A stretch of DNA of 64,000 nt from Escherichia phage JLBYU08. The stretch lies in the sequence record OK272482.1; one strand, given 5' to 3'. The notes beneath the pieces are model-generated. The model was not told the origin of the DNA and did not search any database. It was given only the letters and a program-made list of their open reading frames with translations. The position numbers and the translations under genes are program-made. Positions within the stretch are counted from its first letter, which is position 1; each line of letters begins with the position of its first letter. Shown here one piece after another: positions 5,128 through 27,121 of the stretch.

Positions 5128-5391
5128 TTATTTGTTGCTCATCCAGTTTTCCCAAGCTGCCTGATAATCTGCCTCACTACGGCGGATCTCTTCTTGTTCT
5201 TCAAGTCGGATCTCTTCTTCCAGGTACCCCAAGATGTCAGCCTTTTTGGTCTGGCGTAGCATCCAGTCATCTTTTTTGCGGGTAAAGATCTTATAAGCTT
5301 TCTCGCAAACCTCTTTTTTGCTACCTTTCTGGACTTCCAGAACACGATAAGCCATATATTGAACTAGTTTGAGCTGGTCAAGACGTTTCAT
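5128..5391 (-). CDS. hypothetical protein, 87 aa, basic
   Basis: ORF with AAGAGGA SD. Confidence 0.6.
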   Translation of the reverse strand: MKRLDQLKLVQYMAYRVLEVQKGSKKEVCEKAYKIFTRKKDDWMLRQTKKADILGYLEEEIRLEEQEEIRRSEADYQAAWENWMSNK

Positions 5392-5453
5392 GATGTTTTT
5401 CCTCTTTATGTGGTTTTTGTTTAGTGGGCCTTTTGGCCCGTGTCATTATCTTA

Positions 5454-5726
5454 TTACTTACGGCGGCAGAATTCAAGCGTTTTTAATTGATAATCTTCCT
5501 CAGCCTGGAGTACAACCGCCTCGATCATTTCGTTGGCATTGTTGAAGCCATACCCTTTAGCGAACTCATCCGCACCACCTTCGTGATCATGTTCTGCGTT
5601 CATCGCTTCCACGAAATGGAATTCAAGATTATTGAGATAAGGGCTTGATGTTCCGTCCTCTTTTTCGATGAGATCCCAAATAGCATTAAAACGTGATTCG
5701 ACTTCTTGATTAATCCAGCTTGACAT
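5454..5726 (-). CDS. hypothetical protein, 90 aa, acidic
   Basis: ORF with AGAGGAAAA SD. Confidence 0.6.
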   Translation of the reverse strand: MSSWINQEVESRFNAIWDLIEKEDGTSSPYLNNLEFHFVEAMNAEHDHEGGADEFAKGYGFNNANEMIEAVVLQAEEDYQLKTLEFCRRK

Positions 5727-5945: not shown

Positions 5946-6257
5946 TTATACGGTCCGATCATTGGCCTTTGTCCAGGACCTGGCGATCCGTTTCCCGGTC
6001 ACCTGGAACGGAGACTGCATTGTGTGTAAGGAGTCCAGCGTAAGGGAGGACCGTTTACGGCGTATCTTCAGGATCGCTAACGTATTGTCCATCTCACGGC
6101 CAGGCCCTGGGCGGTATGGTGTGCCTCCAGCGTTAAGGTTGATGATCTCATGTATTGAGATCCGGCGTTGTTTTGCTTCCGCATCTTTGAAGATAGCCAG
6201 CGGAGGAGCTATGCGTTGCCGATACCAATCTAAAACGGTTGGCGTAATAGCGATCAT
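5946..6257 (-). CDS. hypothetical protein, 103 aa
   Basis: ORF; ATGA overlap with upstream gene. Confidence 0.45.
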   Translation of the reverse strand: MIAITPTVLDWYRQRIAPPLAIFKDAEAKQRRISIHEIINLNAGGTPYRPGPGREMDNTLAILKIRRKRSSLTLDSLHTMQSPFQVTGKRIARSWTKANDRTV

Positions 6258-21283: not shown

Positions 21284-21529
21284 TTAGTCAATCACTTCAA
21301 AAGTTCCCCAATTCCCGTCCAGCAGGCAGGTGATCGGATCCCCATCGTCGTCAAAGATTTCAAAGTTCTCAGCATCCAGGATGTGGCCCTCGAACACAAT
21401 ACTTTCGTCGCCACCACCAGAAATAACAGCGTATTCCTTACCTTGAGTCAAGTTTTGACATCCTTTGCCACCAAAACCTACTTCAACACAACGTACTTTC
21501 TGTCCTGCGCGAGCAACTACTTCAGTCAT
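21284..21529 (-). CDS. hypothetical protein, 81 aa
   Basis: ORF with CAGGAGA SD. Confidence 0.6.
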   Translation of the reverse strand: MTEVVARAGQKVRCVEVGFGGKGCQNLTQGKEYAVISGGGDESIVFEGHILDAENFEIFDDDGDPITCLLDGNWGTFEVID

Positions 21530-21849: not shown

Positions 21850-22231
21850 TTGCTGCTTCTCCCGCATTCATCAGATCTGCCATAGCGTCACCCACGAAGA
21901 GAACAACCACATCGTTTACCGCGTCAGCATCATCTTTGTTGACGTTGCTGAATTTAGGACACACAGCAATAATCATATAGACACCGTTACCAACCTGAAC
22001 TGTCCGTGTGGTGCACATCATGGTGGTATTTGTGCCTTCTTTGAAGGCGAAGCCTTGAAGACGCTCCTCTAAAGTGTTACCGGTAGATTTCAGAAGCGCC
22101 AGCTCGTCCAAGGCATAGATGATATCTCCGGAAGTTAGTGTTGCCTTGCCATCAGACACCATAATAACTCCATCAGCACCGTCAAGCTTAGAGGCTTCAA
22201 AGATATCAATATCCCAAATATTTTTCATCAC
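21839..22231 (-). CDS. hypothetical protein, 130 aa
   Basis: ORF with GAGGAAG SD. Confidence 0.55.
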   Translation of the reverse strand: MMKNIWDIDIFEASKLDGADGVIMVSDGKATLTSGDIIYALDELALLKSTGNTLEERLQGFAFKEGTNTTMMCTTRTVQVGNGVYMIIAVCPKFSNVNKDDADAVNDVVVLFVGDAMADLMNAGEAANED

Positions 22232-22488
22232 GCTTCCTCGTCGTCTAAAGAGTTGAAGATTTCACCGAAGTATTCTAAGACTTCTAGCTCCCGTGTGGTG
22301 CAGAAAACACAGTCACCGTTGTCATCCTCGATAACGGCCTCTTTACCCAGCACATCTACTTCAAGTTTATCGTTCAACAGGACAGCCCCTGTGTAAACTT
22401 TGTCGGCTGTGCAGTCCCGAAAAGCAGAGTCTTTCTCCAGATAGTCTGGCTTAACCTTGGCTTTAATTCGTTGGTATTGTTTGGTCAT
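22228..22488 (-). CDS. hypothetical protein, about 86 aa
   Basis: AAAGGGGA SD before internal ATG; track ORF begins at TTG. Confidence 0.45.
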   Translation of the reverse strand: MTKQYQRIKAKVKPDYLEKDSAFRDCTADKVYTGAVLLNDKLEVDVLGKEAVIEDDNGDCVFCTTRELEVLEYFGEIFNSLDDEEA

Positions 22489-22551
22489 TGCTGTGGTCCC
22501 CTTTCGTTTTGATAGGGCCATTATATTAGGCTCCATCACTGTTGTCAAGTA

Positions 22552-22773
22552 TTAATGTTCAGGTTTTACAAAAACTACTTCATTAACAGTGCACCAGACA
22601 GAGTCTCCTTCATCATCTTTAAAGGTAAGGCACTGTGCTGAGTTTTCCAGCTCATCGATCTCTTCTTGTGATAAAGGGGCCCCTTCTTCCAGGAGGGCTT
22701 TTACCAGGGGGGTTCTCACAAAACTCTGCTTCATAAATTGCACCGACTGTGCAATCTTTAAAAGCTCGGTCAT
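22552..22773 (-). CDS. hypothetical protein, about 73 aa
   Basis: ORF; no clear SD. Confidence 0.4.
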   Translation of the reverse strand: MTELLKIAQSVQFMKQSFVRTPLVKALLEEGAPLSQEEIDELENSAQCLTFKDDEGDSVWCTVNEVVFVKPEH

Positions 22774-22883
22774 TTGCAACGCATTCTGACTTCAAAGTAA
22801 TTTTCATCTTGGCAGTCTCCTTAGTTATTTAAAAATCAACGCTCTGTTTGTGTGAAACATCTTATATCTAATCTTACTTCTTG

Positions 22884-23255
22884 TCAATGACTATTTTCAA
22901 TCAGCCACACAGGGTCGAGGTAAATTTGTTGGCGTGTTGCCCAATGACAAACTTCATTGTACATCTGAACCTCTTTGTCTGTCAATTCACGAATAGGCTC
23001 ATCTATACCCTCATTTTTGTGGTAATCCCAGTCGGCATCGATTTCCCACAGCCATGACTTGTTGTCACCACGCTTACGCACACAGAAGTCACCAGGACGG
23101 CCTGCCAGTGCATTTAAGAACTCGTTCTCTGCTCGCTCCTGAAGAATGCTAAGGAGCAAAACGTTAGAACATGACCGTAGAATATGCTTCAGCTCACAAT
23201 CATCAATCTCAACTTCAATACGCTGTTTGACTGTGTGAGTACCTTTTACTAACAT
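22884..23255 (-). CDS. hypothetical protein, about 123 aa
   Basis: GGGGAGG SD before internal ATG. Confidence 0.55.
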   Translation of the reverse strand: MLVKGTHTVKQRIEVEIDDCELKHILRSCSNVLLLSILQERAENEFLNALAGRPGDFCVRKRGDNKSWLWEIDADWDYHKNEGIDEPIRELTDKEVQMYNEVCHWATRQQIYLDPVWLIENSH

Positions 23256-23265
23256 CCTGCCTCCC

Positions 23266-23460
23266 CTATACAAACTCTGCAAGTGTTGTGTTGTTCACTG
23301 CACCGCAGTAAATGGAGTATCCCAGCCCATTAAAGTGCAGAAACCACGGCGTGCCGGAATTATCTTTCACGTAGACATCGCCGTTGCTTGTAAAGGGCCA
23401 ATATTCTTCACCAAGGGTGAAATACCTACTCATACCCTCAGCCAGATACTTTACTTTCAT
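23266..23460 (-). CDS. small protein, 64 aa; member of a three-gene tandem paralogue set
   Basis: Shares pattern F..G..Y.V...D..G..W(F/Y) with the two upstream genes; ATGA coupling. Confidence 0.55.
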   Translation of the reverse strand: MKVKYLAEGMSRYFTLGEEYWPFTSNGDVYVKDNSGTPWFLHFNGLGYSIYCGAVNNTTLAEFV

Positions 23461-23684
23461 AGGCCCTCTTCAACAGCTACAAACTTGGCAAGCAGGGTGG
23501 TTCCGTAGATATGATACTCACCGTTTGCCAGATGGGAGATAAACCAGGCAATCCCTTCCTCGTCTTTAATCATCTTGTTTGCACGATTTTTATCGTAATA
23601 AACCTCGTAGGTCTTTCCTTCTTTAAAGAATGACAGGTCTGTCATCTTTTCTTCTACAAAGGTAGCTTTAACCAAAGTCGTCAT
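23457..23684 (-). CDS. small protein, 75 aa; tandem paralogue
   Basis: AAGGAG SD; ATGA coupling; shared motif. Confidence 0.6.
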   Translation of the reverse strand: MTTLVKATFVEEKMTDLSFFKEGKTYEVYYDKNRANKMIKDEEGIAWFISHLANGEYHIYGTTLLAKFVAVEEGL

Positions 23685-23965
23685 TGATCGGTCTCCTTCT
23701 TGTTAAGTCTGAATACTGCAATAATAGCATTCCCAAGGTGCAGTGTCAAGTCATTTCCAAGATACCACAGCATCCCACGGTCATCTTTAATGAAAGGGTA
23801 ACAATCTGGTGCCTTCCAGACATTGTACACTTTCCCAACCTGAAAGAAATCAGGCCCTGTTGGGATTTTGGTGCCAGGCCACACTTGAGATACCTGAACA
23901 CACTCCACCTGCATAATAACAGGAATGGTCATGGATGTAAATGTTTTTGTTGGCTCTACTACCAT
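23681..23965 (-). CDS. small protein, about 94 aa; tandem paralogue (start at MVVEPTK)
   Basis: AAAGAGGAGA SD before internal ATG; track ORF N-terminus would overlap polymerase exon 2. Confidence 0.55.
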   Translation of the reverse strand: MVVEPTKTFTSMTIPVIMQVECVQVSQVWPGTKIPTGPDFFQVGKVYNVWKAPDCYPFIKDDRGMLWYLGNDLTLHLGNAIIAVFRLNKKETDQ

Positions 23966-24014
23966 AAAAGTCTCCTCTTTGCTCAACAACACTTCCATGT
24001 GTTGATAGTTTACA

Positions 24015-24368
24015 TTAGTGACAATCACCCCAATTACGACCACACAAGTATTCACCTGTGATCTGGAACGGGACTCCCATCATTTTAGAAGCTTGCCAGA
24101 AGCAATGTACCACCATTTCGCCCACAGGACTCCAGATAAGTTCAAGCTTTCCGTCATCGTTCAAGATAGGATCGTACACCGTGTTTCCGTCTCTGTCAAC
24201 CACTTCGTTTCCGTTTTCATCCTTGCGTGCCTTTTTGTACTTATGACCGTCGAACACATGAAGTTTGGCCTCCTGCTCTGCCTTAAATGCTTCCAATTCT
24301 TCAATTGTGTCGAAGGTGTACACAGTCTTATACTTCGGTGTGTCAGGTACTTGAAGCTGATATTCATC
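24015..24368 (-). CDS. DNA polymerase (family A) exon 2: motif C (H|DEYQLQV) and C-terminal end ...NWGDCH
   Basis: Supplies the HDE motif and terminal His absent from the upstream 809-aa ORF; follows the omega-G of the intron. Confidence 0.75.
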   Translation of the reverse strand, partial: DEYQLQVPDTPKYKTVYTFDTIEELEAFKAEQEAKLHVFDGHKYKKARKDENGNEVVDRDGNTVYDPILNDDGKLELIWSPVGEMVVHCFWQASKMMGVPFQITGEYLCGRNWGDCH

Positions 24369-24697
24369 CATCTGTTCAGGTAGGTCGTTAAGCTACCCCG
24401 CACCATTACGTGCATAGCCATACAGTTTCCTGTATGGATCGGACTACCTCACTGCCTTGGTAACAAGGCACCTCCCATTTCGACCGCACTTGCTGGCCTA
24501 CTCTACTCGCTTCTTCACACCAACCTATGTTGGAGCTATGCTTTCGATAGTCTCTGAACGTTCATCCTCTCGGATGCTTCGCTGCGGATTAGCATATTGA
24601 GCTTTTACCATACTCAGGTGTAAAAGTCAACTTAGCTTTCCCGTCAATTAAAGAGGTTATTCGACATAGATCACTCTATGAAGCCACAATGTTATTT
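24369..24697 (-). mobile_element. group I self-splicing intron, 329 nt, no internal ORF
   Basis: AAUUGACGGGAAAG, GUUCAGAGACUA and GGUAGUCCGA elements; exon 1 ends in U, intron ends in G; in-frame TAA just inside intron. Confidence 0.8.
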
Positions 24698-27121
24698 ATG
24701 GTAATAGATAATACGACGGACACCTTCATCGTACCACCCACGCTTCACCATTTGGTGGTGCATGAGTATCCCAACTAAGTCACACAACGATGCACCACCA
24801 TTTTGTTGGTATGCATTAAGTAAAGAGTGTTTAGATCGGGTCCAGATGGCATGACCATCAAAAGAGTATATAAACTTCTTACCAGTTGCTTCCCAGAATT
24901 TCTCCAGATCCTCTTTACGCCCCTTAAGACCAGGGTTGGCATCCCAAAGCGCATCGATTACCCTTTGCCCCAACTCTGGAGAGATATCCAGCATGTCTGC
25001 AACTTTATCTTTTTGTGCCCCGTACATAACCCCATACGTGATAGGTTTACCGTCGTTACGGGACACCTCTCTGCCTGCTACTTTTGTATATGCCTCAGCA
25101 TTGTTTTGGTGTGCGTCCCCGTTACTTACAACATCATAATACAAGCCGTTGTCGAACTCAAAGGCACCCCAAGCCCCGATAAGCTGCTCTAAGTTGGACC
25201 CGTCAATACCGATCTCAAAGTATCCTGGAGGAACACCCCACAGACTACGCATCTCTTTACCCATAACCACTTTAGGAGATGGTTTAGGCATGTTTGCACA
25301 AATACTGTGTTTCTGTCGGGAAGTGTTTGTTAGCCCAGAACTTTTAGCAGGAAGCTTATGGTCAATCTTCAAACGTGGGTGATTAAGAAGACCAGTATCA
25401 ACCTTATCCTCCTTGATTGGATCAAGGACCGATCTGCGGTTTCGCAATGATAACCACAAGACGATATCTTTAGCCATCTCTCCGTTCAATTTTTCAAGAT
25501 TTGGGCATAGGTGTCCAAACGTATCTTTCAGCTGCGGAGAAGTAATAAGTGCTCTGGCTTTTCTACGTATTTTCCCGAATACTTCCTTTTTAATCCTTTC
25601 GGAGTTAGGAAAGCTTCGGAACTTGTGCACGGTTGTCTGAAACTTAGCATCAGTTTTGTTCCAGAAGTTGATAATCAGGTCACAATACTCTGACTCTAAA
25701 AGCTCGTCCATGTATGCATATACTCGTGCATCAACATCTGCATCAGGTAGAGCTTTCTTCTTGCTGTCTTTAGTTACATCCTTAGTTCTCCACATTGTCG
25801 GAAGCCAACCAGCACTGATCAGGTATCGCTTAATGTCGTCCTGATTGCTGATTTTCATAGGTATCTTGCAGTCCGGCATTCGCTTCTGCTGTAGATCACT
25901 TATTGCCTGATCCATCAGCTCTTTAGGTAAAGGTTGTGGTGTGGAAGTGCCCTTAATATAGCCTCTCAAGAAATCAGCCATCTTATCAGGGTCTTTGCAG
26001 CCCATCTCTTCACACCATTTTATCCCCATCTTGCTGACATCTCCTGTGGAGGTAAATGCTCGCTTAGGCGGGGCTTTGAACTCCAAAGCACTCATGTCCA
26101 CAGGATAGCCAAGCTTATCTTTTAACCATTTCCAACCATTGTTGGAGATTGTCCCATCTTGGTTAAACGGCTTTTCAGGGAACTTGGGCCGCTGAGACAT
26201 TGACAGCTCTTTTAAAGGAAGTTGAGGTTCAACACGATCAGCGATTTCTTTCATCCACGCATCGCAACGGTCACGTAAAGCAATAGCTCCATCTATGTCG
26301 AAGTATACACCCTGACGGGCCTGCAGCTCCATCAGGAAGTGCTGCAGCATGCCTCGACGTAGTGCGTTCTTCCAGGTGATCTTCTTGAACCCTTTCGGCT
26401 TCTCTTTGGCTGGATCGTACATAAAGTTCTGCATGTCAGATTTGCCGTAGAATACACCTTTTGATTCCGCTACCAGCTCTTTCCAGAGCAGCTCCTGGAT
26501 GATAACGTCCTCGAATACACGATCCACATACTTCCACAACGGAAGATCGCGCCAGTCATCAATTTGAACTTTCTGGTTACCAAGGGCGTAGCCCCATGCC
26601 ATAAGGCCGTGAGGACCAACAGGCTGCATTTTCTTAGTAACCGGGTTGAATACAGAGTCCGGACAACCTTTTGGTAAAGGGCGATCAGGCCACAAGATTC
26701 GGCTCATCGCCAACGTATCAAACAGGTTAACCTGGTGGTCGTTGATAGTCCCCATACATTTAGGATCACGGAACATATCAAAATGAATACCGGATAATCT
26801 CTCCATCAGCATAAAGTCATAACTGTAGCAGTTATGGCAGTTCAAAGCTGTTGGTGACCAGTCGGAATTGCCTGTAAGCCAACCCTCCAACTCTGAAAAA
26901 TCTGCTATGCGAACTTCAAAATCTTTATAAAAAGTTTTCTTTGCCAGAATAAAGTTCTTAGCCTTCTCTATATCCTCTTCGGAGTAGTGTGTGCGGTCAT
27001 TTAGAGGAAGGAACAGCATAAAACGGTTCTTATTCAGCTCTTTAAACAGGCCGCAGTGATAATAAAGATCTGGGTCTTCCAGCAAACCGGATGACTCAAA
27101 ATCGAACGACCACATGCTCAT
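24698..27121 (-). CDS. DNA polymerase (family A) exon 1: 3'-5' exonuclease and polymerase domains through motif B
   Basis: N-terminal WSFDFESSG exo motif; IGIDGSNLEQL (motif A-like); KPITYGVMYGAQ (motif B); AAGGAGAA SD. Confidence 0.9.

Follow-up and report, generated by a model that had tools for sequence, protein, structure and literature searches.

Three adjacent minus-strand genes of Escherichia phage JLBYU08, here called A, B and C, are on sequence evidence real and presumably expressed paralogues of ancient duplication. They lie beside the DNA polymerase gene in the 64,000-nt stretch that we analysed (OK272482.1; the window), and the core of each encoded protein is predicted to be a beta-barrel of six strands in which the beta1-beta2 loop is long, the rare fold of Gp54 of Escherichia phage Bas11 (JohannLBurckhardt). 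The slot that holds them, between the polymerase gene and the phrog_6273 gene, appears to be exchangeable and accessory, with the family having grown and shrunk there by tandem duplication. As to function, we tentatively favour, by analogy, small protein-binding modules for host or defence proteins, with a different partner for each paralogue.

Gene layout and kinship of A, B and C

A first-pass annotation of this DNA had described three consecutive coupled genes of 64, 75 and about 94 aa next to the polymerase. Its coordinates and lengths were correct (Table 1), and to these we add the strand (minus), which it had not given. Both junctions (C stop/B start and B stop/A start) are ATGA overlaps, so the three genes should indeed be translationally coupled, and the polymerase is an immediate neighbour, with only 49 nt, on the same strand, between its 3' exon and the C start. 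No terminator-like site was seen in this interval. The longest ORF of C extends to 24055; the start of the 94-aa protein (ATG at 23965) was chosen from the phrog_12922 profile, the Mangalyan annotation and the GAGGAG 6 nt upstream. Together A, B and C open a long minus-strand run of small genes, which comes after a block of rIIA/rIIB, helicase, methylase, primase-helicase and polymerase.

Table 1. Coordinates of the three genes, their start signals and the boundaries of the slot (window positions).
Feature	Position	Strand	Description and basis
Gene A	23266..23460	-	64 aa; phrog_12802; FFH2 ORF201
Gene B	23457..23684	-	75 aa; phrog_12623; FFH2 ORF202; central member of the three
Gene C	23681..23965	-	94 aa; phrog_12922; FFH2 ORF203 / rV5 gp219 position
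Shine-Dalgarno of C	23972..23977	-	GAGGAG, 6 nt upstream of the C ATG; sequence, RBS annotated in Mangalyan
Shine-Dalgarno of B	23693..23698	-	AAGGAG upstream of the B ATG, within the C 3' end; sequence
Shine-Dalgarno-like site of A	23464..23468	-	GAGGG upstream of the A ATG, within the B 3' end; sequence
Sigma-70-like promoter match (lead only)	23721..23749	-	In C, upstream of B; TTGACA, 17 nt, TATTAT, with TG; consensus scan 11/12
Upstream slot boundary	24015..24368	-	DNA polymerase 3' exon; phrog_8888 DNA polymerase, 1.6e-58; exon edge from alignment with intron-less ECP32
Downstream slot boundary	22884..23255	-	Conserved 123-aa gene; phrog_6273, rV5 gp216; also in PVP-SE1 and GAP31

The hexamers of the sigma-70-like match within C are kept in ECP32, FV3 and FFH2 and not in a divergent seven-copy relative described below, and coding constraint on C may equally account for this retention. 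The same consensus scan gave 19 sites where 11.6 were expected, with several 10-11/12 matches on the minus strand, and a perfect sigma-70 consensus (TTGACA, 17 nt, TATAAT) was found at 22520..22548 (-), just upstream of the gene ending at 22228.

Some observations concern the neighbouring genes. A group I intron (RF00028, 72.5 bits, E 1.9e-16; Rfam match 24419..24707) interrupts the DNA polymerase gene. Alignment with the intron-less polymerase gene of ECP32 places the intron at 24369..24697 (-), with the junction ...TACCAT / GATGAATATCAG; it is thus 329 nt long, the 809-aa "polymerase" ORF being exon 1 plus read-through and the 118-aa ORF being exon 2. Here it carries no homing endonuclease gene; the intron of FFH2, Mangalyan, FV3 and isim holds a 507-nt HNH ORF, and PVP-SE1 has a LAGLIDADG ORF in the same place. 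On the other side, the adjacent minus-strand genes at 22228..22548 (phrog_11936) and 22552..22807 (phrog_12544) are mutual paralogues (cross-match E 8.9e-5) that share AFRDCT.G.VY ... DD.GD..(W/F)CT, and this pair is probably the "first paralogue set" that the first-pass annotation implied. Relative to FFH2 and Mangalyan, the second of these has an extra C in a six-C run (~22708..22713), which splits an 84-aa gene (FFH2 ORF199) into overlapping 51-aa and 75-aa frames; it is either a pseudogene or a homopolymer sequencing error.

The motif previously reported for the three proteins was found in all of them, and their alignment is fully conserved at the columns F, G, Y, K, D, G, W, G, A and F. 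Formal alignment, on which the proposed paralogy could have failed, gave significant similarity for A-B and B-C by BLASTP (2e-5 and 2e-6), by Smith-Waterman comparison with 5000 shuffles (z 8.1 and 9.6, 0/5000 each) and by hhalign (4e-4 and 1.6e-5). The A-C similarity taken alone was marginal (BLASTP 0.007; z 3.4, with 37/5000 shuffles reaching the observed score; hhalign 0.014), so the kinship of these two depends on transitivity via B, the hub of the family. When the orthologue-family HMMs were run against the 893 ORFs of the window, the best non-self match was always another of the three (A to B, E 0.0039; B to C, 0.00055; C to B, 0.00014). The marginal A-C values (E 0.007-0.014, 37/5000 shuffles) might be taken to mean that the likeness reflects chance or composition, or that these ORFs are not genes. 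That reading is already refuted by the shuffles, the family HMMs and dN/dS: A-B and B-C beat all 5000 shuffles, the HMMs pick each other among 893 ORFs and dN/dS is far below 1. Against it, too, each gene has a separate PHROG family (E 1e-47 to 1e-67).

At the DNA level, short remnants of duplication lie in register at the conserved motifs (23551-23570 versus 23772-23791 and 23269-23283 versus 23478-23492). Protein identity between the paralogues is 24-37%, and each has an orthologue family of its own, whose members share at least 77% identity throughout the genus. Considering this low identity, the separate orthologue families and the presence of only two short DNA remnants, the duplication is old rather than recent. 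No fourth copy was found in the window with a joint A/B/C profile. Local duplication, as had been suggested at first pass, is the best reading of these sequences, supported by adjacency on one strand, coupling, significant similarity, the DNA remnants and a relative with seven copies.

Conservation, copy number and relatives of the module

In this region JLBYU08 shares 97.5% identity with Escherichia phage FFH2 and 94-97% with many further Vequintavirus (rV5-like) genomes. The region is present at a coverage of at least 80% in 113 phage records, where all three genes are kept together, and B was matched by tblastn in ~115 records. Annotated relatives call the products "hypothetical proteins" (FFH2 ORF201-203, Mangalyan 226-228). 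In comparisons with FFH2, Mangalyan, FV3 and ECP32, dN/dS was 0.06-0.14 for A, 0.08-0.30 for B and 0.00-0.03 for C, which differs from its ECP32 counterpart by 33 synonymous and 0 non-synonymous changes (dS ~0.95). These low ratios indicate that all three genes are protein-coding and constrained, C extremely so. Full-length PHROG HMM matches were obtained for each (phrog_12802 for A, 1.6e-47; phrog_12623 for B, 3.8e-53; phrog_12922 for C, 2.8e-67), with weak cross-matches among these three PHROGs, all of unknown function. Scans of A, B and C with Pfam, NCBIfam and PADLOC gave no match, and word-indexed protein searches, whether started from B or from the alignment of the three, returned only Vequintavirus orthologues of 74-100% identity plus frameshifted fragments.

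The B orthologue of WalterGehring (MZ501111, L010 1801..2026) has one additional G in a G-run (GAAGGGGG versus GAAGGG); the record of this viable isolate lists it as a truncated protein of 55 aa. Frameshifted versions of C occur in other records (P0051, P0052). On the sequences at hand, these frameshifts may be true losses or sequencing errors. Separately, 16-20 unannotated GenBank "Campylobacter phage" records (MG0656xx; host Campylobacter jejuni) are 95-99% identical to window positions 22800..24700, and their host label looks doubtful.

Copy number in the slot varies from 3 here to 7 in a divergent lineage and 0 in sister genera. The seven-copy case (L011; GCA_012894635.1, contig AATLQU010000010.1, 3930..6319) is a divergent Vequintavirus-like sequence whose polymerase gene is ~80% identical at the nucleotide level. 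The same interval, from the polymerase 3' exon to the phrog_6273 gene, contains C-like, B-like and A-like copies and four more of 75, 71, 67 and 65 aa; behind the C-like copy, an Ead/Ea22-like gene (PF13935) and a 63-aa gene have been inserted. Two of the seven copies are uncalled in the source record (a 75-aa one at 5280..5504 and a 65-aa one with its start at 6125), and the 71-aa extra paralogue had no match among cultured phage records. A metagenomic contig (L012) carries an array like that of L011, with at least six copies. In the sister genera the slot has other contents: unrelated genes (phrog_4474 and phrog_3261) in Seunavirus PVP-SE1, a DUF551 gene in GAP31 and, just downstream of the polymerase gene, unrelated genes in Certrevirus PcCB7V. 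No family member was found within 6 kb of the slot in these three phages.

When 1.84 billion representatives were searched exhaustively with a profile, only 18 matches came back. Small stand-alone relatives (P0054, P0058, P0064) and fused relatives (P0056, P0061, P0063 and P0066; phrog_3523) were recognised among them, each of the latter with 2-4 tandem repeats of the module found in A, B and C. Six long candidates were rejected (P0053, P0055, P0057, P0060, P0062 and P0065): in these repetitive proteins the score builds up from many partial matches, each of them weak. P0053 evidently arose by translation of a DNA tandem repeat; P0055 is a beta-helix protein and P0065 a propeller (Vgb-lyase-like) protein. 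The phrog_3523-type repeats match PHROGs 12802, 12623 and 12922 of our three genes, and also 3249, 4927, 9122, 10169, 16833 and 17857. A, B and C thus share a profile-detectable module with the phrog_3523-type superfamily and belong to it. Relatives of P0063 were found by tblastn in ~76 Enterococcus phage records, sometimes beside primase/helicase genes, and P0056 comes from a phage-like contig, near a Prim-Pol gene. The module, together with the modelled fold, is thus widespread among phages and nowhere characterised.

A further gene of the window, of 81 aa (21284..21529 (-); phrog_4927, with a weak DUF7244 match), has an N-terminal half-module VKC...(L/F)T.GK.Y.V as in this superfamily. Its family was aligned to the superfamily by hhalign (A11 versus A14) at E 1.6e-5 and 79% probability, and P0063 holds both repeat types (phrog_4927 type and the type of A, B and C) in one protein.

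Predicted fold and candidate functions

Structure models cover B and C and were both built from one shared alignment, so they are not independent. They predict the small six-stranded barrel with its long beta1-beta2 loop that is seen in Gp54 (PDB 9AXB), in C with an N-terminal extension of ~15 aa. Gp54 has 66 aa, is non-essential in the laboratory and has no known function (PMC11578894). By binding the antitoxin domain of CapRelSJ46, a fused toxin-antitoxin, it switches this sensor on directly and itself unfolds in part; its close homologues from Bas5, Bas8, Bas10 and SECphi27 do not trigger CapRelSJ46 (PMC11578894). Its authors call the fold very rare and suggest that the normal role of the protein may be inhibition of another defence (PMC11578894). 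In databases it appears as PF25180 ("Phage antiviral trigger protein Gp54"), phrog_7421 and the PDB entry given above. In the literature searched, Gp54 of Bas11 is mentioned only in the CapRel paper and its preprint, and the EVADES anti-defence catalogue mentions neither Gp54 nor SH3 nor beta-barrel. A PhageMaP gene-essentiality study of "Bas63" was discarded as a source of knock-outs, since Bas63 is a Felixounavirus.

By sequence, A, B and C fall outside PF25180: its HMM (gathering score 27 bits) gave no match to them even at E up to 10 versus 116 bits for Gp54 itself, whose sequence was extracted from MZ501085. With hhalign, the alignment of the three against the Gp54 family alignment gave E 0.12 (probability < 4%), and the more diverse expanded family gave E 0.011 (3.9% probability, not significant), with the Gp54 profile aligned in the expected register (F..G on F..G, G..W on G..W). 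Profile sequence searches of the PDB returned noise only and did not recover Gp54. As sequence similarity is not significant, homology to Gp54 is unproven; the link is the predicted fold, and convergence is possible. We also considered whether phrog_3249, a weak match of A and B, is the Gp54 family, and it is not (Gp54 is phrog_7421). In Bas11 itself, bas11_0048 (L003 12579..12944, phrog_2684, 121 aa), which lies 2 kb from gp54, is a weak match to the superfamily profile (E 0.0018-0.026), unlike Gp54, which that profile does not match.

A Foldseek search of BFVD with the B model found many uncharacterised proteins of 60-80 aa from Drexlerviridae and other enterobacterial phages (TM 0.7-0.8), and outside the Gp54 group the best structural match was the SH3 domain of RecD. 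Among the BFVD neighbours, one from Vequintavirus isim bears the label "putative minor capsid protein" and a second "tailspike sialidase" (70-78 aa, unverified labels), which would fit minor virion or decoration proteins. We regard this as very improbable, given that the annotations of BFVD neighbours are uncurated and that the three genes belong to the replication/early block, whereas the structural module is distant (after ~49 kb in the window).

As a working explanation, the three genes very probably share transcription with the polymerase/replication block, and their translation is linked through the ATGA overlaps. Each barrel could then be a small protein-binding module for a host protein, possibly a host-defence protein, in early to mid infection, with the paralogues having diverged towards different partners. 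Like Gp54, the proteins could also be targets that host immune sensors detect. Protein binding is favoured by the exchangeable slot, the varying copy number and the fold shared with a sensor-recognised accessory protein. The proteins are of 7-11 kDa, soluble and without a predicted membrane segment, and their small size, solubility and acidic to neutral character (pI 5.0, 5.3 and 6.5) make nucleic-acid binding unlikely. It is an inference that the proteins bind other proteins in the cytoplasm, that these are host or defence proteins and that expression is early to mid; the functional part of this explanation is an analogy. Counting against an anti-defence role, the three genes are genus-wide and C is extremely constrained (0 non-synonymous versus 33 synonymous changes), unlike fast-evolving, patchy anti-defence genes, so that a housekeeping partner fits better.

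The main rival to host or defence protein binding is a role as replisome accessory subunits, in which the barrels would tune replication by contacting the phage DNA polymerase, the primase-helicase or a host replication protein. The site after the polymerase gene and the Enterococcus relatives near primase/helicase genes fit a replication role equally well, and such a role would account for the placing and co-translation of the genes right behind the polymerase gene. C follows the polymerase 3' exon by 49 nt on the same strand with no intervening terminator-like site and is as conserved as the polymerase (dN/dS ~0). Fused-repeat relatives adjoin primase/helicase or Prim-Pol genes (Enterococcus phages; L009), and the resemblance to the RecD SH3 domain points the same way. 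However, sister genera with the same polymerase have no family members, and copy number varies; on balance we think this role unlikely.

Whether the targets are host or defence proteins or the replisome, A, B and C may act jointly as a hetero-oligomer, since other phages fuse 2-4 copies of the module in one polypeptide. In a stronger form, they would be obligate partners in one complex, a split version of the phrog_3523 proteins, rather than independent binders. ATGA-coupled translation favours equimolar synthesis, the module occurs as 2-4 fused repeats in single polypeptides of other phages, and the three genes are retained jointly in 113 phage records; yet selection on them is strongly unequal (dN/dS ~0 for C, up to 0.30 for B), B alone is disrupted in WalterGehring and seven-copy arrays exist. 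We think the obligate complex unlikely; it is compatible with either functional hypothesis.

Significance and comparison with known systems

What is already known of A, B and C is their existence as hypothetical proteins in three unconnected PHROGs. The demonstration of their paralogy, the predicted Gp54 fold, the array of 3 to 7 copies and the fused-repeat relatives appear to be new. The three form a new family of a recently described kind and not a new kind. The practical gain at present is that three "hypothetical" PHROGs are linked to each other and, through the predicted fold, to a solved structure. Gp54 has so far been an orphan, known only via its detection by a bacterial toxin-antitoxin sensor, and A, B and C are tractable candidates for learning function and recognition by sensors other than CapRel. 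With the seven-copy relative and the Enterococcus repeat proteins, the array suggests a broad unrecognised family of small phage binders, and rV5-like phages are widely used in biocontrol and therapy cocktails.

More speculatively, the three genes could be one state of an expandable "accordion" array (3-7 copies) of Gp54-fold binders, diversified by tandem duplication in Vequintaviruses to neutralise or escape various host immune sensors. We consider this rather unlikely as a whole. If true, the Gp54 fold would mark a widespread phage superfamily in spite of its published description as very rare. Stand-alone genes, tandem arrays and fused repeats would all fall within this superfamily, whether the host is Gram-negative or Gram-positive, and so would the Pfam Gp54 family, more than 10 PHROGs and part of the DUF7244-like proteins.

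Tandem families of small accessory genes, with duplication, divergence, copy-number variation and variable slots, are known in large lytic phages. A, B and C resemble these in evolutionary pattern only, and no specific named family fits. SH3-like small beta-barrels (the RecD SH3 domain, 5LD2, and FeoA) are among the nearest known systems; the three proteins have neither the five-stranded SH3 topology nor an SH3-family sequence match. With respect to Gp54, C has the N-terminal extension and a longer loop, and the genomic settings differ: Gp54 is single-copy in a Drexlerviridae siphovirus, whereas the present family belongs to a myovirus and has 3-7 copies in tandem.

The phrog_3523-type proteins, from phages of Enterococcus (a Gram-positive host) and metagenomic phages, are encoded in early/replication regions. 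Their 2-4 repeats are fused into a single chain of 180-360 aa that ends in a helical tail, whereas A, B and C are three separate genes. Both share the motif (F/Y/W)(F/W/L)T.GK.Y.V ... (I/V).D(D/E).G..W(F/Y), with per-repeat E values down to 1e-7 to 1e-9.
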